From an uncultured Acidimicrobiaceae bacterium (GTDB lineage Bacteria > Actinomycetota > Acidimicrobiia > Acidimicrobiales > RAAP-2): DNA of 64,000 bases. The notes beneath the pieces are model-generated. The model saw nothing but the letters and a program-made list of their open reading frames with translations, had not been told where the DNA came from and ran no database searches. Positions 16,969 through 29,217 of this stretch are shown here, piece after piece. The DNA is taken from contig CAVRWO010000005.1 of the NCBI GenBank assembly GCA_963724865.1, positions 197,885-261,884 of the forward strand. The letters run 5' to 3'. A program made the translations under genes and the position numbers. The number at the start of each line of letters is the position of its first letter. The first letter of the stretch is position 1.

Positions 16969-17778
16969 ATGACGAAGGGCAACCCCCTCGAGATGAAGCA
17001 CACGCTGAAGACCGAGTGGATCCTCGGCATCGTGGGCGGCGTCGTAGCACTCGCCGCGCTGGGCCTCGGTCGAGCCTTCGGCAAGATCTCGCGCTCTTCG
17101 CTTGACGAGAAGCTCATTGTCTGGGCCGCCGCGTTGGTGCTCGTTGTCGCCGGAGCTTTTGCGATCATGCACCTTTCGAGGGCGATCGGTCGATCCGTCG
17201 CACGCGGCACGACGATCGGCACGGGCGCGAGCGTTCGTCTGATCACGAACGGTGTTGGCTACATCGTCTTAATCTTCGCGCTGCTCACGGTCCTCGGCGT
17301 GTCGCTCGATCACCTCCTCATCGGTGCGGGCGTCGCGGGCATCATCCTGGGCGTCGCCGCGCAGCAGAGCCTCGGCAACGTTTTCGCCGCGATTGTCATG
17401 CTTGTCGCTCGACCGTTTGTCGTTGGCGACATGATTCGCATTCGTTCCGGCGTCACTGGCGTGCTCGACGTACGCGTGCTCGGCATCGGACTCACGTACG
17501 TCACTGTCGACACCGACGACGGCATACTGCGAGTGCCCAACTCACTCATGCTCGCTGCGGGCATCGGTCAGCTTCGTCCCGGTGCGACGCCGATTCCTTC
17601 GCCGAAGCCCGCGCCTCCTCCAAATGCGGTTGCGACACCTCCTTCGAGCGCGACACCAGCAAGCGCCGCGCCGTCAGCGTCAGCAACTGCGCACTCATCC
17701 AACAGTGCATCCGATGCGACCTCGGCCACCTCGGTGAATCCGACGCCTTCGGCGCAGACGGAGTCGAGTGAACGATGA
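16969..17778 (+). CDS. Small-conductance mechanosensitive channel (MscS family) with low-complexity C-tail
   Basis: GVAGIILGVAAQQSLGNVFAAI..ARPFVVGDMI, LRVPNSLML; P/A/S/T-rich tail. Confidence 0.85.
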   Translation: MTKGNPLEMKHTLKTEWILGIVGGVVALAALGLGRAFGKISRSSLDEKLIVWAAALVLVVAGAFAIMHLSRAIGRSVARGTTIGTGASVRLITNGVGYIVLIFALLTVLGVSLDHLLIGAGVAGIILGVAAQQSLGNVFAAIVMLVARPFVVGDMIRIRSGVTGVLDVRVLGIGLTYVTVDTDDGILRVPNSLMLAAGIGQLRPGATPIPSPKPAPPPNAVATPPSSATPASAAPSASATAHSSNSASDATSATSVNPTPSAQTESSER

Positions 17779-17828: not shown

Positions 17829-17902
17829 GCGGGCGTAGTTCAGCGGCAGAACATCAGCTTCCCAAGCTGAGAACGCGAGTTCGATTCTCGTCGCCCGCTC
17901 CA
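17829..17902 (+). tRNA. tRNA-Gly (anticodon CCC)
   Basis: Acceptor GCGGGCG/CGCCCGC + T + encoded CCA; anticodon arm TCAGC-TT-CCC-AA-GCTGA; T arm GCGAG-TTCGATT-CTCGT; 74 nt. Confidence 0.97.
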
Positions 17903-17981
17903 AATGAACGCGGGCACCGGGCCGACAAGGGCCAGCTAACAATTGCCCAAGGTGCGATGACCGCCGTCCGTTCAAAGTTGA

Positions 17982-19226
17982 CTAGGTCCTAAGAAAAGAC
18001 TCGCCCACCGGCTGACCCGCGAGAAGATTCGAAGCAGCGCGTGTGATTTCGACGGGCAGGTCGGGGTGGGCACGCTCGTGGGGAGAGGTGACGCTCGCAA
18101 GATCGAAGACGGCAGTCAGTGTCTCTTCAGCAATGGCGGGCGCTGCATCGAGTCCCCAAGCGAGACCCTCAAATATGAGATTGTCAATTGTGATCGCCGC
18201 ATGACGATACTCTCCAGCGACTGCGAGAGCCATCTCCCCATCGTTCTCCTGATGTGCTTGCGGAACGACGTCATAGGCAGGGGCAAGCGACACTGACCCG
18301 TCCGGCCAATGCAGCATCGAAAGGTTCTTCGCATGTAGGTCGAGATTTCCTATAGCGACTGACATCACGACTAGTTTGAAAAGGCGCTCGAGAGAGTCAC
18401 TGTCGCCTTCGGACGCGAAGACTTTAGCGACACGTTCGAGGCTGACGCGGCCGCCATGCTTTTGGTACTTCTGGGTGCCGGTCGCGCCGAGAATCTGATT
18501 GAAGTCTTCCTGGTGAATGCGGCCCTCCGGCGCCTCAGGAGATCGGTCGTAACGTTCGATAACTACGGCCGATACGCCATCGAACTCCTCGATCCAAGTG
18601 GAGAAGTTCGCGAGTCCGACGGCTCGGGCAAAGCGCGAACCATATTCCTCGTCATAGATCATCGTTGGGTGATCTCGCGACTCGGGTTTCAAAATGTGTG
18701 TGGATGGCCAGCCGTCAACTACGCGATTCCAACCTTCATCGGTTCGGGCCAGCACTATCTTGTCCTGGACTCCGGGCAGAGAGGTCTTCCCGCCAGGGAA
18801 TCGGTTTCCTAATGGGTTCTCTCGCACATGCTCAAGCATGTTGGCGACATCGGTTGTTGACGCTAACTCTTTTGAAGGTTTCTTCGGCTCGCCGGGCACG
18901 TCCAGGTCCCAGATCTGTAACGCGCCAGCGACGTCACGGCCATAGCGACTCAGCAGGCCAATAACGTCGTATTGATCGACTCCCGCTTCTTGAGCTAGTC
19001 GGGTCAGCATTCTTCCTTCGGGAAGTAGTTCCCGGAAAAAATTCTGGCGACGAGCTTTACCAGCGCTCACTGGCACCGCTGTGAGAGGGATGGCAATAGA
19101 AAGGACACGGCTATCGATCCCGAACGTATCGACCGCGGTGGTATCTAGTCGCAGTTCAAACGTGCGCCATGTTCCAGTTAGCGTGCCAATTCGGGTGCCA
19201 TAGAGTTCCACGACTAGGTCAGCCAT
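17982..19226 (-). CDS. hipA: HipA-family kinase toxin
   Basis: N-terminal couple domain; P-loop KTSLPGVQDK, HILKP, IERYDR, HQEDFNQ, GNLDLHAKNLS, LAPAYD. Confidence 0.9.
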   Translation of the reverse strand: MADLVVELYGTRIGTLTGTWRTFELRLDTTAVDTFGIDSRVLSIAIPLTAVPVSAGKARRQNFFRELLPEGRMLTRLAQEAGVDQYDVIGLLSRYGRDVAGALQIWDLDVPGEPKKPSKELASTTDVANMLEHVRENPLGNRFPGGKTSLPGVQDKIVLARTDEGWNRVVDGWPSTHILKPESRDHPTMIYDEEYGSRFARAVGLANFSTWIEEFDGVSAVVIERYDRSPEAPEGRIHQEDFNQILGATGTQKYQKHGGRVSLERVAKVFASEGDSDSLERLFKLVVMSVAIGNLDLHAKNLSMLHWPDGSVSLAPAYDVVPQAHQENDGEMALAVAGEYRHAAITIDNLIFEGLAWGLDAAPAIAEETLTAVFDLASVTSPHERAHPDLPVEITRAASNLLAGQPVGESFLRT

Positions 19227-19464
19227 GATCGGCTCTCGGTGTGATAGTGGCAGTTAACTCCATACCGGTTTCTCGCATCGCAGCGAAGAGGCGATCCATG
19301 AGGATCGAGGGCTTTCCGGCCTCAAGTTCCCAGATGTACTTCTGCGTCGTGCCCAGTCGCCGCGCAAGTTCTCGTTGACTCAAACCAGCAAGTAGCCGGG
19401 CTTGTTGCAAGATGCGTCCAAGTGATTCGGCACTCGTGATCTTTCCTGTGTACGCCATAGCCAT
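19219..19464 (-). CDS. HipB-like XRE helix-turn-helix antitoxin
   Basis: LGRILQQARLLAGLSQRELARRLGTTQKYIWELEAGKPS; overlaps the hipA start by 8 bp. Confidence 0.87.
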   Translation of the reverse strand: MAMAYTGKITSAESLGRILQQARLLAGLSQRELARRLGTTQKYIWELEAGKPSILMDRLFAAMRETGMELTATITPRADHG

Positions 19465-19468
19465 CCTC

Positions 19469-19543
19469 CGACTTTCATATTGACGTCATTCTAGGTGACT
19501 ACAATTTAGAAGTCAATGATGTATGACTACGAAATAGAAGTCA
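19469..19543. promoter_or_regulatory. Three tandem palindromic operators upstream of hipBA
   Basis: CGACT-N10-CGTCA (19469-19488), TGACT-N10-AGTCA (19496-19515), TGACT-N10-AGTCA (19524-19543); 27-28 bp period. Confidence 0.72.
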
Positions 19544-19724
19544 TAGGATTTGCCCTTGGGCAGGCCAGGGGACCCGCGGACTCGATGAGCACTGCCGAGC
19601 ATCGACTACCTCCTCGCGCGGATCTTGCCCATCGCTTGCCCAAAAGTAACGATCCCGGACTTTAACTCATCGAATACCTGTTCTGATCAGATCGTTCTCC
19701 GGGCACGAAAATCGTAGGTACGCT

Positions 19725-19770
19725 GCTTCCCAAGCTGAGAACGCGAGTTCGATTCTCGTCGCCCGCTCCA
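19725..19770 (+). repeat. att-like copy 1 of the tRNA-Gly 3' half (46/46 identical)
   Basis: GCTTCCCAAGCTGAGAACGCGAGTTCGATTCTCGTCGCCCGCTCCA identical to 17857-17902. Confidence 0.97.
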
Positions 19771-19859
19771 CGTGTTCTCGCCGCCTCGACTAGATCGCGC
19801 CTTCAGCGCGACGAGTCGTCAATTGTCTCGAGCGCCGGATTGCCGTAGGTTTGGCGGCG

Positions 19860-20324
19860 TCAATCAGCGGTCTCACGGTCGACGAGGGCACGGAAGGCGA
19901 GTGCGGAACGTTGCTGGGCGCGTTGCACACTTCCTTCGACGGCGTGATCAATCGCGACGCCGATCGGTCCAAACCTTGGCGTGTAGCGGATCGTCATGGT
20001 TAGTTGGGTTCCGTCGCCGTCGGGGTTAAGCGTCAGCTCTAGTGACATGTCCTTCGCCGTCGCCACACCGACGCCCTCGTGCACCTGACGGTGCGGCGGG
20101 TCGAACTCCGTAACACGCCATGTAGTCGTGCTCTTCCACGGACCCGAGATACGGGTGCGCTCTTGATAGGTGGCGCCCAAGCGCGCCGGTCCATCCACGC
20201 GAACCATCTTGAGCGTGCTCTCGACCCATTCCGAGTAGCGAGTGGCGTCGCAGAGGTACTCCCAAACCCTCTCTTGCGGCTGCGAAAGATCGACCGACGC
20301 AACAATTACCTGTTCCTTGCTCAC
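19860..20324 (-). CDS. SRPBCC / polyketide cyclase-like ligand-binding protein
   Basis: ERVWEYLCDATRYSEWV, WRVTEFDPPHRQV pattern; GTG at 20324 with an AAGGAG RBS overlaps the glycosyltransferase stop. Confidence 0.78.
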   Translation of the reverse strand: MSKEQVIVASVDLSQPQERVWEYLCDATRYSEWVESTLKMVRVDGPARLGATYQERTRISGPWKSTTTWRVTEFDPPHRQVHEGVGVATAKDMSLELTLNPDGDGTQLTMTIRYTPRFGPIGVAIDHAVEGSVQRAQQRSALAFRALVDRETAD

Positions 20325-21637
20325 TGTTCTCTCCTTGTTGTTCGCCAACGCGTTGGTGGCGCCGTCGTCGTGACCCCCTCGAGGCTGTCGGCGATGGTGC
20401 CCAGCGCGTTGAGGCGCGTTGCCTCACTAGCGAGTCTGTCCACCGATGCCCTTAGCGCGGCGTTGCCCAGCACCCTCTGCACGGCGGTCGCGATCATCCT
20501 CGAAGTGGGTCGCCCCGTCTCTAGATTCACGCCGGCGCCACTCCAGGCGACCCGCGCCGCGACCTCGGGCTTGTCTTCGCCCTCGCCGGCCACAATTGAC
20601 GGCACGCGGTTGGCGATGGCGAACTGCACGCCGCCGTATCCTCCGTTGGTGATCATCACGTCAACTCGTGGAAGGAGTTGATCGTAGGGGATGAATGGCG
20701 CGACACGCGCGTTGGCCGGCAACGAGACGGGAATCGCTGACGCCGGCGGGCCGCCGGTGGTCACGACGACGAGCAGGTTCTCCCCGGCAAGAGCACCGAG
20801 CGTCGGCCCAATGAGCTTCGAGAAGTCGTCGTTATCGACGGTGCCTTGCGTAACGAGCACGACGGGTTGCGATCCATCGAGGTCGCTCCACCAATCCGGG
20901 AGATCTCCCTTTAGATGCGGCAGCACCGGCCCCGCGAAACTGACGTTCGCGGGTACGTCGCGGCGCGGGTATTCAAAGCCAGGCCCACAGAGCTGCCAAA
21001 AGTGGTCAGCCAACTGGAACCATTCGAGAAAGAAGACCGGCGAGTCAGCGAGTCCCAGTGTTCGAAGTTGCGAGTTGATCTCTCTACGCGCCGCGCGAAG
21101 CACGACGGAGCGAACGAAACGCGTCGAACCTCGAGCGAGCAGCGCACCTCCAAACGACGTGGGCGGTTCGCGTCCCAGTCCAAAGGGGTACGTATCCCGG
21201 CTCACTGCCGACAGCGGCGTACACCCAAGAACGTGGACTGCTGGAGTGTCAATCTCCGACAAGAGCGCGACGAGCGCGCCGCCGACGGTCAGATCGACGA
21301 CGACCCCGTCCGTCGACCCCGCGGCCAGTTCAGCCCGGATGGCGTCGAACTGACTGGTCATCGGTCGAGCGAACAGCTCCAAAATGTCAAAACGCACGGC
21401 CCGAATACCTTTGCGCCCGCGACGACGCGGAAATGAGCGGTTCAGGTAACGATCGTCGTAGTCGGCGTGCGCCGGCCACGGCACGAACGTCAAACCAGCG
21501 CTCTCGATGTCATCGCGGAAGCGCGAACCGGTGATCATCGTGACACGGTGCCCCCGGCGTACGAGCTCTTCGCCCACCGCTCGAACGGGTCCGACGTGAC
21601 CGCCGATCGGGCTACTCGCGAGAAGGTACTTCGCCAC
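20321..21637 (-). CDS. Family 1 (MGT/UDP-type) glycosyltransferase
   Basis: N-terminal GHVGP..GEELVRRGHRV; C-terminal APFIPYDQLLPRVDVMITNGGYGGV..GEDKPEVAARV donor-binding motif. Confidence 0.88.
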   Translation of the reverse strand: MAKYLLASSPIGGHVGPVRAVGEELVRRGHRVTMITGSRFRDDIESAGLTFVPWPAHADYDDRYLNRSFPRRRGRKGIRAVRFDILELFARPMTSQFDAIRAELAAGSTDGVVVDLTVGGALVALLSEIDTPAVHVLGCTPLSAVSRDTYPFGLGREPPTSFGGALLARGSTRFVRSVVLRAARREINSQLRTLGLADSPVFFLEWFQLADHFWQLCGPGFEYPRRDVPANVSFAGPVLPHLKGDLPDWWSDLDGSQPVVLVTQGTVDNDDFSKLIGPTLGALAGENLLVVVTTGGPPASAIPVSLPANARVAPFIPYDQLLPRVDVMITNGGYGGVQFAIANRVPSIVAGEGEDKPEVAARVAWSGAGVNLETGRPTSRMIATAVQRVLGNAALRASVDRLASEATRLNALGTIADSLEGVTTTAPPTRWRTTRREQ

Positions 21638-21666
21638 TTGTCACTCATTTCACTACTATGTTGCAG

Positions 21667-21695
21667 TATTAACCACTATGCTATAGTGGTTAATA
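21667..21695. promoter_or_regulatory. Perfect palindromic TetR operator
   Basis: TATTAACCACTAT-GCT-ATAGTGGTTAATA (13-bp arms) between the divergent glycosyltransferase and tetR genes, overlapping a TATAGT -10 and the A of the tetR ATG. Confidence 0.8.
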
Positions 21696-22393
21696 TGGTA
21701 AAGTCAAGCCGGAGCGAGCCACAAGAACTGGCTCGTAAATACGCCTCGCCTCTTCGGGCCGCCCAAGCCGCCCAAACGCGCCAACGGATTCTCGACGCCG
21801 CTATCGGGTGTTTTTCTGCCGCCGGTTACGTGGGCACGACCCTCGCAGATATTGCTGCTGAAGCCGGCGTTTCCGTCGAGACGGTCCAGACTCAGGGTCC
21901 CAAGTCGGCCCTCTTACTCTCCTCGTTTGAAAAGGCGTTCGCCCTGAGTGAGGGACAAGACTCGATCTTTGATCGCCCCGAAGTCGTCGAACGCACGAAC
22001 CTTCAGACGGACGCCGTGGACTTCGTGCGGGGAACATGCCGATTCCTGGCCCGCGCGGCCGTACGCAGCACGCGGCTCTGGCTCATCTTCTACCACGCTG
22101 CCAGCATGGACTCCGCGATCAGGGCTTCTTACGACGCGTTCACGAGTCGGATGCACGCTGATGCGCTTCGACTCGTCACGATGGTCGCCGACCGTGGCCC
22201 GATTCGCACGGATCGCGCGCGACGAAAGCTGGCCGATGAGCTCGAGGTGCTGTTCTTGCCTTTTCCGTACGAAAGACTCGTCGACGGTGCCGGATGGAAC
22301 CTCGAGGAGTACGCCGACTACCTCTTCGGCAACGCCTGTCGGATCCTCTTTCCTCAGGACGACCAGCCGCCAAAGCTGAACCGTCTGAGATAG
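21695..22393 (+). CDS. TetR/AcrR family regulator
   Basis: RQRILDAAIGCFSAAGYVGTTLADIAAEAGVSVETV HTH; ATG 21695 chosen over the track start 21467. Confidence 0.9.
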   Translation: MVKSSRSEPQELARKYASPLRAAQAAQTRQRILDAAIGCFSAAGYVGTTLADIAAEAGVSVETVQTQGPKSALLLSSFEKAFALSEGQDSIFDRPEVVERTNLQTDAVDFVRGTCRFLARAAVRSTRLWLIFYHAASMDSAIRASYDAFTSRMHADALRLVTMVADRGPIRTDRARRKLADELEVLFLPFPYERLVDGAGWNLEEYADYLFGNACRILFPQDDQPPKLNRLR

Positions 22394-22460
22394 GTGATAG
22401 GCACATCTGAAGTGTCTGGGCCTGCACCCGTCTGAGTTCCCCATTTCGGGGGCACGTCAC

Positions 22461-22742
22461 TCAGTGAGCCGCGACGTACTCTCGCAGCGCCTCGCGAATG
22501 GCTTCCGACACGCTGATACCGCGCTCGCTGGCCCGCAAAATGATCTCTCTCTTGAGCTCTGGCTCCAATCGCACCGACTCGACCGACGAGGGTCCCTCAC
22601 CAAGCGTCGGACGCCCAGTGCGACGTTGGAGGATCTCCTCCACGTCATAACCGCGCTCGGCCTCCTCGGCGAAGGCTGAGTTGTCCCTGAGGTCCTTTGT
22701 GGCTGGACCCTTTTTGTCGTTCGTCGTTCCCATATCACTCAC
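22461..22742 (-). CDS. Ribbon-helix-helix (CopG-like) antitoxin
   Basis: AEEAERGYD..GRPTLG..SVRLEPELKREIILRASERGISVSEAIREALREYV; start overlaps the upstream toxin stop. Confidence 0.72.
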   Translation of the reverse strand: MSDMGTTNDKKGPATKDLRDNSAFAEEAERGYDVEEILQRRTGRPTLGEGPSSVESVRLEPELKREIILRASERGISVSEAIREALREYVAAH

Positions 22743-22981
22743 TTCCGCCCTTCCAGGAGCCTTCGATAGGCCGCTCTCATTGCCATCGCGTGGATCACCA
22801 CTGGTCCAGTTGTCCGATCCAGCACGACCACCTCGAGGAAGTTGCCGGAGGTGTCGACGCCAAGAATGAGAAAACGACTCGGATCCTCGCCGACCTCTTC
22901 GACGACCATTGCGTGCCGTATCGCGTGAAGGGTGTCCGGCTCTTCGACTCCGTGCCTCAGAGCGGATGGCTCAACCTCCAT
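22739..22981 (-). CDS. Putative BrnT/RelE-like ribonuclease toxin
   Basis: 80 aa: SALRHGV..RFLILGVDTSGNFLEVV..VIHAM; toxin-first pair with the RHH gene. Confidence 0.6.
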   Translation of the reverse strand: MEVEPSALRHGVEEPDTLHAIRHAMVVEEVGEDPSRFLILGVDTSGNFLEVVVLDRTTGPVVIHAMAMRAAYRRLLEGRK

Positions 22982-23125
22982 CGGGTTATTGTACTACGAA
23001 ACATCTCTACGGCAGGCGTGTCGATGTTGCCCGCGGAGTGCCCGCTTGAATCATGCGAGTGAGTCCATACGAAATAACTAGAGCCTGACCAGTAGTTTTT
23101 GAACGCCGCGGTTCCGTCAGCACCT

Positions 23126-23154
23126 GCTTCCCAAGCTGAGAACGCGAGTTCGAT
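23126..23154 (+). repeat. att-like copy 2 of the tRNA-Gly 3' half (29 bp, truncated)
   Basis: GCTTCCCAAGCTGAGAACGCGAGTTCGAT identical to 17857-17885, then diverges. Confidence 0.93.
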
Positions 23155-23245
23155 GCGACTCAAGCGAGAGCCTGAGCAAGAGGAACCGTTCAGGGCCCCT
23201 GACGCGGTCCAGGGGGTCCAGGCAGCGTTCGGCAAGACTCAGACA

Positions 23246-23878
23246 ATGCGTTGGAACGATCTCAGCTGGCTCAAGTCGAACCGGCCCCTGCTCATCGCCG
23301 AGATCATTGCTGTCCCGCTTGTTATCGCCTGGTTCTTGTTTTTCTACTTCGACACCCACGACGCCTTTGCCCTGGTCCTGCTGTTCCTGCTCCCCGTGTT
23401 CGCCGTGGCCAACCTGGTGATCCTCAATCGGAGCAGAAGTCGGCTCGCAGACGCTGGCGCGCGGCGAGACTCGCTTACCGGCGACGTGGCCACGCCGAGT
23501 CCAATTCAGTGGTCGCCATCTACTCAGCAGTTGCGATGGACTGGTGCCGTAGACGTTCCGGGATCCATGGGGCGTATGAACGCCAGTGCGCCGCTCGGCG
23601 TCCTCGAACTGACCGGCGGTCGACTCGCACTTCGGGTCCGCCCGACGTTCGTGGCGACGTTGTTTGGGGCCAGGGCACTCGTGGTCACTCCGGCCGATGT
23701 GGAGGCGGTCTTTCCGGCCCGGGCCAAACTTCGTTATCGCGGCATTGGGATCCGACCAATCGGCGAACCCCCTTCCTACTTCATCACTCGAGGTGCGGAT
23801 AGGGGGGCCATTCTGAGCGCAACCGCTGCGGCCGGCTTTCCCGTTCAGTGGGAGGAGCGAAACTATTCGTACAGCTAA
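23246..23878 (+). CDS. Hypothetical membrane protein (2 TM + C-terminal soluble beta-rich domain)
   Basis: Two hydrophobic helices followed by a soluble region; the track's 5' extension runs through the att copy, so ATG 23246 is preferred. Confidence 0.55.
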   Translation: MRWNDLSWLKSNRPLLIAEIIAVPLVIAWFLFFYFDTHDAFALVLLFLLPVFAVANLVILNRSRSRLADAGARRDSLTGDVATPSPIQWSPSTQQLRWTGAVDVPGSMGRMNASAPLGVLELTGGRLALRVRPTFVATLFGARALVVTPADVEAVFPARAKLRYRGIGIRPIGEPPSYFITRGADRGAILSATAAAGFPVQWEERNYSYS

Positions 23879-23935
23879 CAGCCGGACAGCAGAACCCATC
23901 GGATGCGATCAGCGTGCTTCGCAGCACTGGTGCGC

Positions 23936-25489
23936 TTACGCTTCAACACTCGCTATCGAGCGGCTCCGCAAGCCATTGGGGGACGGCCAGATAAAGCTGT
24001 TACCGACCTCCACTCCGACCGTGCTTGGAGTCGTCGCCGGAAGAGCGCTGACGGGCTTTCCGGTCTTCGAGCATCCGGTGAAGACGGGCTCGCTCACTCT
24101 CGAGCCGCTGTCAGCTTCTCCTTGAATAGCTACCACCTTGTAGAACGGCGTCTGTTCGCACCAAAACGTCTCGTGCGGCGGGATTGATGACAGGCGCCCG
24201 TCTTGCACGTCGAGCAGCATCCACTTCTTTGCCTGTGTCTCTATAACGATGTGTGACTCGTTGCTAAACGCCACGTTCGTTCCGACTGTGAGCGCTCTCA
24301 CGTTCGTCACTCGCTGTGACCATGTCGTCTTTCCGGTACTGGCGGAGATGCCGTCCAGGGTGAGCGTGACGCCGTTCATATTTGGTGACGACGTGCCGAC
24401 CGTTACCTTCCCGTTGAAGTTGCACGTGATAAGCGGAGCGAGAAATTGGAGAGACCCGGTGCAGAAGACGGATCCTGGCGCTCGCCACTTCACGTCGCCA
24501 TCGGACGGCACAATGGCAACTGTCTCGAACTGGGAAAATGCTTCGGTCTTTCCAACGGGCGTGACGCCCACCGTTCCAATATCCAGGTTCTTCGTCACGA
24601 GGAAGTCGTAACCGTAGTCGGTGGAGAACTGGCTGCCCCCGAAGAGACTGGCGACCGTGCGGGACCACAATCGCTGGCCGCTTGCTGACGTCTGCATGAG
24701 GGCTCCGGTCGCGGCATCGGTCTGCCACAGGCTAGTGACGTTGGCGGCGCCTGGAACGGCCACGCCCACGTTTCGATAAGGACCTGGCACCACACCCGCG
24801 ATAGCACCCGTACTTGGGTTGACCGCGACGAGATCGGTCGTCGTTGCAGAACTGAAGGCGGGGAAACAGAAGTAGGTTCCGTCACCGCAGACCACGGGCG
24901 CGTCGCTGACATCCACCAACTGTTTGAACGCCCAGAGAACCTTCCCGGACTCGACGTCCACTCCTTCGACACGGACATTAGGGCTGCTCAGCGCGGCCCC
25001 TGGAGAGAGCACGAGCGTGGTACTCCCGATGGCGATGGGCGTAAACGCCGCACCTAACGTGATCTGCGAGGGCGAGTATGGGTGGCTCCACACGACCGAA
25101 CCGTTGGTTGCGTTGACACCTGATATTTCCAGTTCTCGCTGGCTCGTCACATTAAGGACCAGGAGTCGGTTGCCGGCGACGACGGGCCCGCCCACAACAT
25201 GCAGCGTGGAATCACTCCACGCCGGCGAGGAACTCGCGCCAGCGGGCAACACCGCGGTGACGGACATCACCAAAAGGCCTGCGATCGCAGGGCCGATTCG
25301 ACCCCTCAAAGTGTTACGGCAGCCAATGAACTCCACCCTTTTGCCTGGGATCCATGTGTCTCGACGCGCATCACTTTCAGTCGCGTTCATGATTTCCCTT
25401 CGACGTGGTTGGACGCATACTTCGTTCACCCGTCCATTCGCTGGAACGATACCCCCACCCAGGTCCGCATTCTTTGTAAGAGGCTCCAA
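23936..25489 (-). CDS. Secreted PQQ-like beta-propeller repeat protein (start uncertain)
   Basis: Repeated G-x-x-x-W blade ends (TNGSVVWS, ESGKVLWA, ASGQRLWS, SDGDVKWR, STGKTTWS) after a hydrophobic signal-like segment. Confidence 0.6.
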   Translation of the reverse strand: MEPLTKNADLGGGIVPANGRVNEVCVQPRRREIMNATESDARRDTWIPGKRVEFIGCRNTLRGRIGPAIAGLLVMSVTAVLPAGASSSPAWSDSTLHVVGGPVVAGNRLLVLNVTSQRELEISGVNATNGSVVWSHPYSPSQITLGAAFTPIAIGSTTLVLSPGAALSSPNVRVEGVDVESGKVLWAFKQLVDVSDAPVVCGDGTYFCFPAFSSATTTDLVAVNPSTGAIAGVVPGPYRNVGVAVPGAANVTSLWQTDAATGALMQTSASGQRLWSRTVASLFGGSQFSTDYGYDFLVTKNLDIGTVGVTPVGKTEAFSQFETVAIVPSDGDVKWRAPGSVFCTGSLQFLAPLITCNFNGKVTVGTSSPNMNGVTLTLDGISASTGKTTWSQRVTNVRALTVGTNVAFSNESHIVIETQAKKWMLLDVQDGRLSSIPPHETFWCEQTPFYKVVAIQGEADSGSRVSEPVFTGCSKTGKPVSALPATTPSTVGVEVGNSFIWPSPNGLRSRSIASVEA

Positions 25490-25576
25490 TGTTCTTACTG
25501 CGAGCCGGGTACCCGGGCCAAGCCAAGTTGGTACGAAAATCTGAAATTCCCACTATCCAATGATAGGATTCTAATC

Positions 25577-25882
25577 ATGTCAAGAACGACCGTTCGCGCC
25601 AAGGGTCAGATTACGCTGCCCGACGATGTTCGCCGCGCCGCGCACCTGGAGGAGGGCGATCTCTTGGAAGCCGAGATCACGGCGGAAGGAATCCTCCTGC
25701 GGCCCCAGAAAGTCATTGATGCCACACAGGCGTGGTTCTGGGCGCCTGGCTGGCAGATTGGCGAGCTTGAGGCCGATGCCGACCGTGCCGCCGGGAGAGT
25801 CAGCACCGTCAGTTCCGGTGCGGAGTTGCTGAGCACGCTACGCCACCGCCCGAAGTCAGCGGACCGACGAAAGAAGTCGTAG
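25577..25882 (+). CDS. AbrB/MazE/SpoVT-family antitoxin
   Basis: TTVRAKGQITLPDDVRRAAHLEEGDLLE swapped-hairpin motif; C-terminal QAWFW..WQ..E.EADAD..AGRV. Confidence 0.85.
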   Translation: MSRTTVRAKGQITLPDDVRRAAHLEEGDLLEAEITAEGILLRPQKVIDATQAWFWAPGWQIGELEADADRAAGRVSTVSSGAELLSTLRHRPKSADRRKKS

Positions 25883-25888
25883 GCGACG

Positions 25889-26182
25889 TTGCCAACATAC
25901 GCATGGCTGGCCCGCTTCGGCAAGGACTTTGATGGGCTAACTCATGAGCAGCGGGCGCTCTTCCTTTTGGCCGTTGCCCAGTTTGTGGAGGATCTGGAAC
26001 GACGACATGGGTTTTGTAGGGGGCTTCGCGTCAAGAGCGTTAAAGGTGCCTCCGGAATCTTCGAGTTGACCTGGGCTAATGACGGACGCGCGACATTTGA
26101 GTACGGCGAACCAATTGTGCCGAATGAGTTCCACGTGGTTTGGCGTTGCGTCGGTACCCACGCAGTATTCGACACGCCCTAG
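25889..26182 (+). CDS. Putative RelE/ParE-superfamily toxin
   Basis: 97 aa: RFGKDFDGL..LRVKSVKGASGIFELTW..DGRATF..VVWRCVGTH; 6 bp after the abrB gene. Confidence 0.68.
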   Translation: MPTYAWLARFGKDFDGLTHEQRALFLLAVAQFVEDLERRHGFCRGLRVKSVKGASGIFELTWANDGRATFEYGEPIVPNEFHVVWRCVGTHAVFDTP

Positions 26183-26267
26183 GTGTCTTTCTTGCACATG
26201 CCCATCAAGCCGCACAACGTCGATCCCGATCAGCGTCCTTCACCGGTCGTCACGTAAGCATCTCCAA

Positions 26268-26313
26268 GGTTCCCAAGTTGAGAACGCGGGTTCAATTCTC
26301 GTCGCCCGCTCCA
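26268..26313 (+). repeat. att-like copy 3 of the tRNA-Gly 3' half (42/46)
   Basis: GGTTCCCAAGTTGAGAACGCGGGTTCAATTCTCGTCGCCCGCTCCA; 4 mismatches to 17857-17902. Confidence 0.92.
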
Positions 26314-26390: not shown

Positions 26391-28724
26391 TCAGGCCGTT
26401 GCGTTGCAGGTATTCTTTCCCTTCGCAGTGTTGGCCGAGCCCACGATCCCCGGGCTGTTGTTCTGCAGCTGGCAGTTGCCCCCCGCTGAGTTGTCCTGGA
26501 GGGTCCCGCCGCCGGTGTTGTTCTGGACCTGGATGTTGCCGCTCACGTCATTGCCCAGGCCATTTTCTGCCGCTCCGATTGTCACCGCACCGGCGTTGTT
26601 CTGGACTTGCAGGTTTCCACCAACCGTCAGCGGCGTGGTGCAGTCGGGTGCGGACCCGACGTCAAACGGGGCGTCAGCGCCGTTGTTCTGTACCTGCACG
26701 TTGCCGTCCACGATCGCGCCGCAGAGGTCGTTCGCGCCGGAGGTGTCGCCGACCACGGGCGAACCGGTGGTCTGTTGCACCTGCAGGTTCCCGTGAATGG
26801 TCCCGCCACGAACATCGACGCTGGCAGCGCCATTGGCCTGCACGTTGCCTTGAATGGTCGACGCGGTGTCGAGCAGGCTTCCGCCCTGCTGCACCTGAAC
26901 GTTCCCATCTACCGTCGCATCCACGAGTGTGCAGACGCTCCCCGACGGGACGGTGACGTTACCTGAAATCGTGGTGTCGCTGTACGTGTTCCCCGTGCAG
27001 CTCACGTTCCCGCTCACCGACGCGTTCGTGCCCGGCGTGAATGAGACGCCGCGCACGACGGTCGCGTTGGTGGGCGCCACAACGGTCTGGAAGGACTCGC
27101 TTGTCGGAAGCGACGTTGCGCCAAGGTTGTCAGTGATCGAGACGAGCTCGTTCGGATCCGCCCCCTGGTCACCGCTGCCGCTCACCGTCGAGGTCTCGGC
27201 CCAGATCGTCGCCGTCCCGTTGGGATTGATCTGACCCGTGATGTTGCGCAGGCCCGCGGTGGCCGGTGCCCAGGGAAGCCCCGTCCCGCCAGCACCAGAG
27301 TTGAGGCCGGTCGGGTAGTCGGGCACGGTGTAGGGCTGGCCCAGGTTGAGACCAGACTGGAGGACGTAGGCGAGCTTCCACTCCTGGGTAGACGCGTCAA
27401 ACACCCACTTCTGCAGACCGGCCGTCGTCGACGCGGCAGCAGCTGTGTAGGTGTTGGTAGCCGACGAGTAGGTGTTGTCACCTGCTCCCTCATCGGCGAT
27501 GTACAGCGTCGTCGGGTTGGCAAACCACATCCCGAAGGGGTAGTCGCTCGAGTCGGTGGCGTTCGCCGCCAGGGCAGTCGGAAAGCCCTTCAAGATGCAC
27601 ATGTTCTGGGGCTCGAGACCCGGACTCGGCTTCTTGGTGGTGCCGCCCGCCGTCGGGTCGTAGGTGAACGCCGAGGTCGTCGGCAACGACGCTCCGGGCT
27701 CGGGCAGGCCGACGCCAGTAGTCGGACAGGCCTTGCCGGTGGGGTCGACGAAGTAGACCGTGTCGACGCCGTTGCTGCCGCTGCCCTTCGTGTAGTAGAG
27801 GACGTTGTTGTACACGGTCGTGCCGCGGTAGTTGTCGTCCTTCGCCGCCTTGTCGGTGGGGTCCCCGAGTTGGGCCACGTTAAAGCTCCCGACCGGCGTC
27901 GGAGCGCCGGGAGTCTGCTCGGACTCTGGCAAGCTCGACGGCTGGATGAGCTGAGCGCCGGCCCCGGTGACGACGGCCGGTGGCTCAGGGTTGGCGCCGT
28001 TACCGGCGTTGCCCGCGGCGTAGAAGACGCCCGCGCCCGGCTCGTCGTTCAAGATCGCGGCGCGGCCGTTGTCGCCCGAGAAGGCGCTCGTCTCGGTGAA
28101 GTGGAAGGTTCCGTTCTCACCGAGCTCTCCAACCACGCGGTAGTAGGCGTCGGGGTCGGCGCTCGTCAGGTCAACCTCGCCGATGGAGTTGGCGTTCGAG
28201 ACGTCGGCCTGGTCGACCGGGGCGTTGTAGCCCATGAACGTCACGTACTGTCCGTCGGTCGAAAGGTTGAGCGCGAGCTCGGACTTCGAGGAGAAGCTCG
28301 TCACCATCTGGTCGCTGCTCGACGTTGCTCCAGGCGTCGTGCTGTTCGGCACCTCGATGCTGTTCACGAGCGAGCCCGCGGTCGTCAGCTGGTTGAGCGT
28401 GATCTCAGACGTGACCCCGAAGCTCCCGTCGACGGCGTCGTTGTTAAAGACGTCGGGGTAGTCGCCGTTGGCGACGGCAGTGCCACACGGGTCGTAGGCG
28501 TCACTACCGCAGCCCGGCGGCAGCTGCGTCGACCCGGCAGTGATGTTCGGGTCATTCTGGTACGTGCTCGTCGCAACGAGCAGGTTGCCCGGCACGAGCG
28601 TCGTCGCGGGTGCGGCGCTGCTGCCAAGCGTCGGGGCCTGCAGCGCCACCCCGGCGATAGCAGCGCACATCGACAGGGCGGCGGCGAGCCGAAGGCCTCG
28701 CCGTAAGGTACGAAGTTGTCGCAT
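26391..28724 (-). CDS. Large secreted hypothetical protein with C-terminal GNxQVQ repeats (777 aa)
   Basis: Arg-rich N-terminus and hydrophobic signal; ATG 28724 with a GAGGAA RBS; about eight GN(V/L/I)QVQ-type repeats near the C-terminus. Confidence 0.75.
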   Translation of the reverse strand: MRQLRTLRRGLRLAAALSMCAAIAGVALQAPTLGSSAAPATTLVPGNLLVATSTYQNDPNITAGSTQLPPGCGSDAYDPCGTAVANGDYPDVFNNDAVDGSFGVTSEITLNQLTTAGSLVNSIEVPNSTTPGATSSSDQMVTSFSSKSELALNLSTDGQYVTFMGYNAPVDQADVSNANSIGEVDLTSADPDAYYRVVGELGENGTFHFTETSAFSGDNGRAAILNDEPGAGVFYAAGNAGNGANPEPPAVVTGAGAQLIQPSSLPESEQTPGAPTPVGSFNVAQLGDPTDKAAKDDNYRGTTVYNNVLYYTKGSGSNGVDTVYFVDPTGKACPTTGVGLPEPGASLPTTSAFTYDPTAGGTTKKPSPGLEPQNMCILKGFPTALAANATDSSDYPFGMWFANPTTLYIADEGAGDNTYSSATNTYTAAAASTTAGLQKWVFDASTQEWKLAYVLQSGLNLGQPYTVPDYPTGLNSGAGGTGLPWAPATAGLRNITGQINPNGTATIWAETSTVSGSGDQGADPNELVSITDNLGATSLPTSESFQTVVAPTNATVVRGVSFTPGTNASVSGNVSCTGNTYSDTTISGNVTVPSGSVCTLVDATVDGNVQVQQGGSLLDTASTIQGNVQANGAASVDVRGGTIHGNLQVQQTTGSPVVGDTSGANDLCGAIVDGNVQVQNNGADAPFDVGSAPDCTTPLTVGGNLQVQNNAGAVTIGAAENGLGNDVSGNIQVQNNTGGGTLQDNSAGGNCQLQNNSPGIVGSANTAKGKNTCNATA

Positions 28725-29217
28725 GGGTATCTTCCTCTCGTAGAAGTTGGTGCTAGCGCGAACGTAGCGACGAGAGGTAAAACGCCAGTGATGCGTTCTG
28801 GTACGTCGCGAAAATGTCTCCGCCGATGGCCCGCTTACGAACGCATTGCGTAAATGCCACGTCAGCGCGTCAAAACGCCTCTCGTGCAAACGGCTCCGCC
28901 AGAGCTCGATTGGAAAGCGAGCCATTCATCTTGATCAACGGCCTCGCGAGCTGAGTCATGTAGCCCTGTCTGCCACGGGGCGATGTGAATCCAACGTGAC
29001 GTGTTCTTTTCACAGATGTTGCCTGCACGTTGCCTGAGTCAAAGTGTCGGTGAGCGCGACGCAAGGGGAGGTGATTCTGTGCAGCCGAGAGGCTTTGCCG
29101 GCCGCAACCTTGGTGTCGTACTAGTACTGAGTGGCGCGACCATCCAAGGGATTCGGTTGCTTCGGCACTGGTCGTGGGGCCGTTATGACTCTGACATTGT
29201 GTTTCAACGGCATATCC

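Follow-up and report, generated by a model that had tools for sequence, protein, structure and literature searches.

The 64,000-nt stretch of DNA analyzed here (the window) belongs to contig C5 of a 3.55-Mb, 96%-complete genome assembly of an uncultured Acidimicrobiaceae bacterium (G000), and contains a tRNA-Gly(CCC) gene followed by 8.4 kb in which the 3' half of this gene recurs, wholly or in part, three times. This 8.4-kb stretch is probably a tandem array of three islets without integrase genes, similar to the cis-mobilizable elements (CIMEs), which would have been assembled by tandem accretion and may be mobilized by borrowed integrases. A probability of roughly three in four is given to this reading. 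The units are numbered outward from the tRNA-Gly(CCC), positions are those of the window, and the comparisons cover 194 genomes of the same genus (genomes, contigs, and loci are labeled G, C, and L, respectively).

The tRNA-Gly(CCC) is the only tRNA detected in the window by either ARAGORN or Rfam, and Rfam has no other matches there. The repeated portion is formed by the 46 nt at the 3' end of the gene, which begin on the 5' side of the anticodon stem and run through to the CCA, and the three copies, which are interpreted as attachment (att) sites, all begin at the same point of the tRNA (Table 1). The search for a 32-nt core with up to three mismatches recovered three matches in the window, against an expectation of 0.00 from 100 shuffles, and no further copies are present elsewhere in the genome. 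The units delimited by these repeats have 1868, 3384, and 3159 bp from end to end, with spacings of 1868, 3401, and 3142 bp from start to start. The coordinates and match counts of the copies, as well as the end-to-end sizes of the units, agree with those reported in an earlier note on this DNA. The outermost copy, att3, is the most diverged, which fits with unit 3 being the older, outermost unit.

As in other islands found at tRNA genes, the distal end of the inserted DNA has a direct repeat of the 3' part of the tRNA, which starts in the anticodon arm, while the cognate tyrosine integrase expected inside such an island is absent from the three units. The window has no match to PF00589 (tyrosine recombinases) or PF00239 (serine recombinases), which confirms the earlier claim that no integrase or recombinase open reading frame (ORF) is present, with transposases not being the object of a systematic search. 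In addition, tblastn searches with four integrases from the arrays of the relatives found no integrase remnants in contig C5. The lack of a recombinase in the window is the only point in favor of a reading in which the repeats are partial tRNA duplications, or chance matches, and the units are ordinary chromosomal DNA. Against this stand the chance expectation of 0.00, the single tRNA position at which all the copies begin, the constant offset (-100 nt) of an arm motif, the variation in content by whole units between conserved flanks, and the integrases of a single family that adjoin such copies, as described below. The non-integration reading has a negligible probability, and is effectively refuted.

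In the process proposed here, the units would have accreted successively at the tRNA-Gly(CCC) through site-specific recombination by an actinobacterial tyrosine integrase. With each integration, the tRNA would be restored, while its former 3' half (anticodon stem to CCA) would be displaced and persist as an attR copy, and the newest unit would be that adjoining the tRNA. The parental elements would have been small, with the order tRNA, P' arm, an integrase on the opposite strand, cargo, often a toxin-antitoxin (TA) pair, the P arm (approximately 100 nt before the core), and att. Deletions would then have removed the integrase gene, together with most of the P' arm, and left the attR side, the retention of which was possibly favored by the addiction imposed by the TA pairs. 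The integrase may come from a co-resident element acting in trans, or from one that has accreted beside the units and acts in cis. Given that the core and the P-arm sites are intact, the units would still be movable from att to att.

The movement of a unit of this type is apparent in unit 2. The segment at 19725-23154 aligns over 3434 bp with contig C6 of G136 (78% complete), at 97.7% identity, from the first base of the att to the next att, whereas the flanks of the two genomes are only 79.5% (ABC transporter) and 69.6% (MscS) identical in nucleotides, and 64–82% in their proteins. This difference between the att-to-att identity and the flanks (70–80%) shows, as far as can be judged by sequence comparison, that unit 2 moved between species recently, as an integrase-less unit. 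In G136, it occupies position 1 of the array, the first after the tRNA-Gly(CCC), and in G000, position 2. The junction adjacent to the att is the same in both genomes, which implies that the integrase-less form is older than the transfer. The G136 copy ends in a full 46-nt att, however, while that of G000 stops at nt 29 of the att, so that the deletion into unit 3 would postdate the split of the two copies. The cut in att2 is the trace of a deletion that extended into unit 3 and removed its integrase-proximal end, where the P' arm and the integrase would be expected.

Other units are also repeated among the relatives. G055 and G109 share a DUF4143-ATPase unit bounded by att copies, with 93% identity, and the pair formed by an AbrB-type antitoxin and a 97-aa protein in unit 3 is found as an att-bounded cassette of 0.85–1.2 kb in G177 and G055. 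The same pair adjoins att copies in at least 12 genomes, and is almost always placed in this way. The units are mosaics, given that the cargo and the TA pair of unit 2 occur separately, with unit 2 of G180 containing the cargo without the pair (84% identity), and G118 and G089 having the pair alone. Unit 3 as a whole was found in no relative examined, and its cargo genes are scattered elsewhere in other genomes, with a homologue of its 210-aa protein in G180. The proposal that the units might be encountered elsewhere as discrete elements was borne out by unit 2 in G136 and by the homologues of unit 1, but not by unit 3 in its entirety.

The similarity to G136 may also be read in another way, in which the units are dead scars of three autonomous islands that decayed in place, nothing in the array has moved since, and the resemblance to G136 is the product of the homologous recombination of a larger fragment or of a chimera of metagenomic assembly over the tRNA and att repeats. 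This is difficult to reconcile with a 97.7% identity that begins at the first base of the att and ends at an att, between flanks of 70–80% identity, or with a G136 copy that terminates in a complete distal att of its own, has a diverged P arm, and is, therefore, not the G000 molecule. A further point against it is the recurrence of several integrase-less units, from att to att, in other species and at other positions of the array.

The decay of an integrase-bearing element can be followed in unit 1, the HipBA unit, which is present in three other genomes (G048, G183, and G018). In G183 (86% nucleotide identity) and G018, the homologous units adjoin the tRNA-Gly(CCC). In G048, an integrase of the family described below comes after HipB and HipA, but lacks its first ~88 residues. 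In G183, HipA is followed by the last ~25 codons of the integrase (…LRYQHATQECDRVLANAL), GGGCAT repeats of the P' arm, and the tRNA, while in G018, the P' arm alone is left between HipA and the tRNA, and in G000, only 80 bp remain. Through this deletion series, unit 1 can be traced back to a minimal element composed of an integrase and HipBA. On this comparison, the series shows the parent to have been an element of approximately 3 kb (in the order tRNA, P' arm, integrase, HipA, HipB, P arm, and att), and not a large island. Between G000 and G018, HipA is 76% identical and HipB, 83–95%, while the flank proteins are 54–62% identical.

The arrangement in G048 is unusual in its position. At L146 (G048:C92, 2695-6358), HipBA, the truncated integrase, and a Phd-like/PIN pair lie 5' of the tRNA-Gly(CCC), between MscS and the tRNA, which is the wrong side for an integration at the 3' end, and suggests either an inversion or the loss of an inverted att copy. 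In addition to the GGGCAT repeats, the P' arm of L145 (G183:C19) and L046 (G018:C64) contains a tandem GGTCACTCG(T/C)GGTCAC repeat, with three copies in G183 and two in G018, where a further protein, such as an excisionase or a host factor, might bind.

The earlier note had left open whether the units are cassettes mobilized in trans or the collapsed remnants of larger islands, and each of these views is partly true, with unit 2 moving from att to att and unit 1 forming a decay series. The decay itself is documented by this series and by the cut att2, but the large parent is not, considering the ~3-kb parent of unit 1. The same evidence bears on a further possibility, that of a dedicated, integron-like platform, where cassettes of 1–3 kb that never had an integrase are captured and shuffled by an integrase acting in trans. 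Such a platform would account for the arrays of very small att-bounded units, such as those of 0.9–1.8 kb in G055, for a TA-rich content like that of the chromosomal integrons, and for the recurrence of units at differing positions and in different species. It is highly improbable, nevertheless, because unit 1 descends from an integrase-bearing element, fragments of integrases are found within the arrays, and the integrase of this family is normally in cis, beside the tRNA. No conserved platform-linked integrase, attI-like site, or promoter is found beside the array, and the cores are derived from a tRNA and accompanied by arm sites, rather than being attC hairpins.

The tRNA-Gly(CCC) locus is an integration hotspot throughout the genus. 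A 41-nt att pattern was matched in 140 of the 194 genomes, many of which have 3–9 copies, and the related loci belong to metagenome-assembled genomes (MAGs) of uncultured Acidimicrobiaceae or Acidimicrobiales from bog, fen, and soil. The units in the arrays of the relatives range from 0.5 to 12 kb and are hypervariable in content, to the point that the proteins of 45 units from approximately 20 genomes seldom cluster together. Even in the closest relative, G006, with flank proteins that are 94% identical, there are two units with other content, while G012 has six att copies on a single contig. In G055 (L033, G055:C59, 7200-12261), the tRNA is accompanied by four att copies, three perfect and one with a single mismatch, at spacings of 1828, 981, 1278, and 901 bp. 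The comparison of this locus among relatives, as recommended in the earlier note, thus revealed extensive variation by whole units between conserved flanks, rather than an invariant 8.4-kb segment.

The G055 array is the most extreme of those found in the relatives. Its units contain a DUF4143 ATPase, an unnamed pair of 99 and 91 aa, the AbrB/97-aa pair, and a pair of 126 and 62 aa, which resembles HicB/HicA by eye, and has no Pfam match.

The enzyme family behind these arrays could be identified from its sequences and gene neighborhoods as an actinobacterial tRNA-targeting tyrosine integrase, with a gene that normally adjoins the tRNA. An integrase of approximately 390 aa is found inside the att arrays of G104 and G033, and a C-terminal pseudogene fragment is contained within a 798-bp unit of G012. 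A scan of contigs recovered 80 loci of this family, distributed across the Actinomycetota, in which the usual order is the integrase, 50–250 bp, and a convergent tRNA, in most cases tRNA-Gly (UCC or CCC), but also Ala, Arg, and Glu. In G104:C179 and L067, the integrases directly adjoin CCC-type att fragments, and not full tRNAs.

The G000 genome encodes one intact integrase of this family (C2:619590-620777), in a 6.1-kb island at a tRNA-Gly(UCC), and the geometry of this island matches that of the repeats in the window. In the maximum-likelihood tree of the integrases, this enzyme falls in a clade with 100/99 support, all the members of which adjoin tRNA-Gly(UCC). The toxin and the ribbon-helix-helix (RHH) protein of the TA pair of the island are 38% and 48% identical, respectively, to those of the pair in unit 2, with the same orientation. 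The genes of the island follow the order tRNA, a 149-aa ORF, the 395-aa tyrosine integrase, ORFs of 397 and 249 aa, the TA pair, and attR, with the RHH (221 aa)/toxin (95 aa) pair being located ~110 bp before the ~45-nt attR.

The C2 island also has a doubled GTGCCC-N-GTGCCC motif after the tRNA (P' arm) and before the attR (P arm). In its strict form, the arm motif has three matches in the whole genome, at the attR arm of the C2 island and in units 1 (19626-19641) and 2 (23028-23043), each of which starts 99–100 nt before its att. As this motif, which can be written [G/T]TGCCC-N5-6-[G/T]TGCCC, was defined after these three G000 sites had been viewed, the relatives provide an independent test. 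In these genomes, the motif is found at -99 to -101 nt in 12 of 54 att fragments and in none of 12 genuine tRNAs, against a background of 0.0095 per 200 nt, while copies of the P' arm lie at +85 to +117 in seven of 80 sites. Integrase-less mini-units with both P and P' arms are found in G049 (1.7 kb), G051 (3.4 kb), and G060 (1.6 kb), and this retention of both arm sites is a further argument against the units being dead scars.

A degenerate, arm-like site upstream of att3 is approximately 5 nt off register, and was not counted as an arm site. The first ~22 nt past att1 (19771-19860) resemble the start of unit 2 of G006 (L023, 5766-5790), with 89% identity including the att, and this start is shared by the G006 unit and unit 2 of the window even though their cargo differs. 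It may represent a vestige of the P' arm that has been conserved.

A number of observations weigh against the interpretation of the array as accreted islets that can still be mobilized. The integrases associated with tRNA-Gly(CCC) occupy sister clades, and not that of the G000 integrase, and the placement of the latter in the tRNA-Gly(UCC) clade means that no cognate helper is visible in the 96%-complete assembly of G000, nor was one found in the 78%-complete G136. The candidacy of the G000 enzyme as the obvious helper is weakened by this placement, and the enzyme that moved unit 2 is a matter of inference. The search for a genomic integrase with specificity for tRNA-Gly, which had been proposed previously, was successful insofar as there is one intact gene on C2, although its clade is associated with UCC rather than CCC. 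Neither unit 2 nor unit 3 could be linked to an integrase remnant, and the units of the window have no clear P'-arm motif, but only a weak, degenerate similarity, so that their attL sides may be defective. In addition, every relative compared is a MAG, and a chimeric join over the identical 74-nt tRNA or 46-nt att repeats could imitate the transfer of unit 2, against which the G136 copy is 2.3% different and has a complete att, unlike the G000 copy.

Several of these points, that is, the lack of a tRNA-Gly(CCC)-clade integrase in G000 or G136, the units without P'-arm motifs, and the origin of all the genomes as MAGs, would be expected if the units were dead scars, as would the integrase remnants and the cut att, which show that decay has occurred. 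Set beside the att-to-att recurrence of integrase-less units described above, they leave the dead-scar explanation unlikely, and the accretion of mobilizable islets is preferred here. The features on which this is based, and the genes contained in the array and its flanks, are listed in Table 1.

Table 1. Features of the tRNA-Gly(CCC) array, its flanks, and the related island on contig C2 (window positions, except in the last row).
Feature	Position	Strand	Evidence or remark
MscS-like channel gene, left chromosomal flank	16969-17778	+	Pfam MS_channel_2nd
tRNA-Gly(CCC), integration target, attL of the array	17829-17902	+	ARAGORN; Rfam RF00005, 67.8 bits
Unit 1, HipBA islet	17903-19770	+	80 bp, HipA, HipB, P arm, att1
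HipA-family kinase toxin, 414 aa (predicted)	17982-19226	-	Pfam HipA_C 7e-42, Couple_hipA 9e-15
HipB-type helix-turn-helix (HTH) antitoxin, 81 aa (predicted)	19219-19464	-	Pfam HTH_3 8e-9; frame overlaps hipA start
Putative P-arm integrase-binding motif, unit 1	19625-19641	+	TTGCCCATCGCTTGCCC; starts 100 nt before att1
att1	19725-19770	+	46/46 copy of the tRNA-Gly(CCC) 3' half
Unit 2, cargo and RHH/80-aa TA pair	19771-23154	+
SRPBCC/polyketide-cyclase-like protein, cargo	19860-20348	-	Pfam Polyketide_cyc2 5e-18
GT1-family (EryCIII/MGT-like) glycosyltransferase, cargo	20321-21637	-	Pfam EryCIII-like_C 1e-17, UDPGT
TetR-family regulator, cargo	~21695-22393	+	Pfam TetR_N 2e-7; start codon uncertain
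RHH (CopG-type) antitoxin, 93 aa (predicted)	22461-22742	-	Pfam RHH_1 1.6e-7
80-aa putative toxin	22739-22981	-	PDB 9sdc_C "Toxin", E 2.4e-7
Putative P-arm motif, unit 2	23027-23043	+	GTTGCCCGCGGAGTGCCC; starts 99 nt before att2
att2	23126-23154	+	29/29 of the first 29 nt, divergent beyond; 3' 17 nt deleted
Unit 3, mosaic, cargo and AbrB/97-aa pair	23155-26313	+	Proximal end deleted
210-aa predicted membrane protein, cargo	23246-23878	+	No family match
517-aa PQQ_2/BamB-like beta-propeller protein, cargo	23936-25489	-	Pfam PQQ_2 2.7e-9
AbrB/MazE-type antitoxin, 101 aa (predicted)	25577-25882	+	Pfam MazE_antitoxin 4e-9; TIGR01439
97-aa AbrB partner, putative toxin	25889-26182	+	Pairing with AbrB antitoxin; conserved pair
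att3, outermost att, end of the array	26268-26313	+	42/46 copy
844-aa secreted repeat protein, right flank	26391-28925	-	60% identical homologue in G009
G000 C2 island at tRNA-Gly(UCC)	C2:615844-622015		Bounded by a ~45-nt repeat starting at the anticodon stem

Each unit has one predicted TA pair, and the names given to these pairs in the earlier note were upheld by Pfam in the case of HipBA, RHH, and AbrB. The pair in unit 1, which has a GC content of 0.53–0.58 in comparison with ~0.63 in the genome, combines the kinase domains and the upstream, overlapping HTH gene by which a type II HipBA system is recognized, and is assigned to this system on its predicted domains. In unit 2, the 80-aa protein has no match to BrnT (DUF497) or RelE/ParE in Pfam or NCBIfam, even at E<=10, and the BrnT label is rejected, with only a weak match to DUF4258 (E 0.022) being recorded. 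The 80-aa/RHH pair is likely to be a TA pair under another name, because of the match of the 80-aa protein to a PDB "Toxin" chain and its RHH_1 partner, and is not named BrnT/RelE here.

The 97-aa partner of the AbrB antitoxin in unit 3 has no match in Pfam (E<=10), NCBIfam, or the PDB sequences, and its previous designation as RelE-like was not confirmed. An AlphaFold2 model based on 32 homologues has low confidence (predicted local distance difference test, pLDDT, of 57), with two N-terminal helices followed by strands, and a Foldseek search of the PDB with this pLDDT 57 model returned no match at E<=0.001. The family includes at least 509 homologous clusters at 90%, all unnamed and nearly all of exactly 97 aa, mostly from MAGs of the Acidimicrobiales and Gaiellaceae. 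This protein is a candidate for an undescribed toxin family paired with AbrB antitoxins.

In all three units of the window, the TA pair is located at the end distal to the tRNA, separated from the following att by 260, 144, and 85 bp. The earlier claim that this is always the case is correct for the window, but does not extend as a rule to the relatives, where the position and the orientation of the TA modules vary, with a proximal Phd/ParE in G104:C26 and a proximal MazF in G060, for example, and the AbrB/97-aa pair being usually inverted relative to the window. The TA-type modules carried by many units of the relatives include HigB/HigA, RES, HipA, PIN_10 with HTH_66, PIN, Phd with ParE, a nucleotidyltransferase with HEPN, PemK/MazF, and Fic. 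A census of the 900 bp adjoining the distal att copies of the relatives recorded 78 ORFs, which include both TA families and ordinary cargo, such as luciferase-like oxidoreductases, PadR, histidine kinases, and alanine racemase.

Outside the array, the order of the left flank (ABC transporter, MscS, and tRNA) is maintained across the genus, as seen in the synteny of the relatives. On the right, the 844-aa protein has a homologue with 60% identity in G009, downstream of the tRNA-Gly region. The C-terminal region of this protein has degenerate repeats of ~20–29 aa, of the GN[VL]QVQ(N)N type, with no Pfam match, and these appear in the gene as families of direct repeats, 38 nt in length, at 26443-27248.

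The mechanism invoked here, tandem accretion with CIMEs, is already known. The CIMEs have lost the genes for integration and transfer, but kept their att sites, and tandem accretion has been described in elements related to ICESt1 and ICESt3 of Streptococcus thermophilus, as well as in tandems of integrative and mobilizable (IME) and integrative and conjugative elements (ICE) (PMC5704250, where Pavlovic et al. 2004 and Bellanger et al. 2011 are cited on CIMEs and tandem accretion). The present array resembles these systems in its tandem arrangement at the 3' end of the target gene, in its sequence of integration, decay, and further integration, and in the proposed travel of the units by way of an element that supplies the integrase. 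It differs in its host, an uncultured genus of the Acidimicrobiaceae, and its target, tRNA-Gly(CCC), in the much smaller units (0.5–3.4 kb), in the longer arrays (three units here, and up to 5–6 units per contig in the relatives), and in its richness in TA pairs. The parents also appear to have been minimal elements composed of an integrase and cargo, rather than ICEs, with no conjugation genes having been seen. As in CIMEs, the units are flanked by attL and attR sites, with the P' arm degenerate or absent and att2 truncated, and have no integration or transfer genes of their own, according to the searches for PF00589 and PF00239, and the tblastn of C5. Decay from an integrase-bearing element can be traced for unit 1, while in unit 3, there is only the mark of the deletion at att2. 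The CIME with tandem accretion is the closest concept described. Mobilization of the units by the integrase of another element, through accretion in cis or in trans, is suggested indirectly by the att-to-att identity of unit 2 in G136.

Stacking at a tRNA has also been reported in the tycheposons of Prochlorococcus, elements with tyrosine recombinases in which older elements are pushed outward and partial tRNAs remain between them (bioRxiv 10.1101/2020.12.28.424599). In the parts of that preprint drawn on here, the similarity extends to fragmented integrases and partial tRNAs scattered in islands, whereas the phylum and the integrase family are different, the replication and packaging-type modules of the tycheposons are not seen in the present array, and a content dominated by TA pairs, as in the window, is not described. 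In Dehalococcoides, several islands specific to ssrA lie in tandem, with a direct repeat of the 3' end of the gene delimiting each one, and vary among strains (PMC3146451). The target in this case is the transfer-messenger RNA, rather than tRNA-Gly(CCC), and, according to the abstract of that paper, the islands carry catabolic operons.

The description of the array as "integron-like", made in the earlier note, is sustained as an analogy, but not in the literal sense, given the lack of intI, attI, and attC. The chromosomal integrons, such as the superintegrons of Vibrio, contain short, promoter-poor cassettes without recombinases, many of which encode TA pairs thought to stabilize the array. 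The units of the window share with these cassettes their short length, the scarcity of promoters, the lack of a recombinase, the position between recombination sites, and the frequent TA pairs. The window has no intI, attI, or cassette promoter (Pc), however, and its sites are double-stranded cores derived from a tRNA, with arm-type sites, rather than folded attC sites, while its units derive from elements that bore an integrase. There is no adjacent integrase, and Rfam recognizes only the tRNA. As these defining features are absent, the integrons serve only as an analogy.

A more far-reaching possibility is that the tRNA-Gly(CCC) is an active gene bank, from which integrase-less units of 0.5–3.5 kb are routinely excised, exchanged between species, and reinserted at any att, although this remains speculative. 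It is equally tentative that the integrases would be encoded elsewhere in this scenario, including in elements at the sister tRNA-Gly(UCC), with the units often being of the TA or defense type. If this were true, the array would be an actively shuffled gene bank, rather than a graveyard, and its function would be comparable to that of an integron.

On the preferred reading of accreted, mobilizable islets, the locus would represent a tRNA hotspot in the process of becoming a store of TA modules, in an uncultured, abundant actinobacterial lineage of peat and soil. It would document minimal elements formed by an integrase and a TA pair, the stepwise loss of the integrase, and the continued lateral movement of the integrase-less stubs that remain. 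The defined integrase family, core site, and arm motif at -100 nt make this recombination testable in vitro, and the unnamed 97-aa family, with its at least 509 clusters, is flagged as a candidate new toxin partnered with AbrB. The array adds support to the idea that integrase-less, att-bounded cassette arrays at tRNA genes may be a widespread and under-described counterpart of the integrons.

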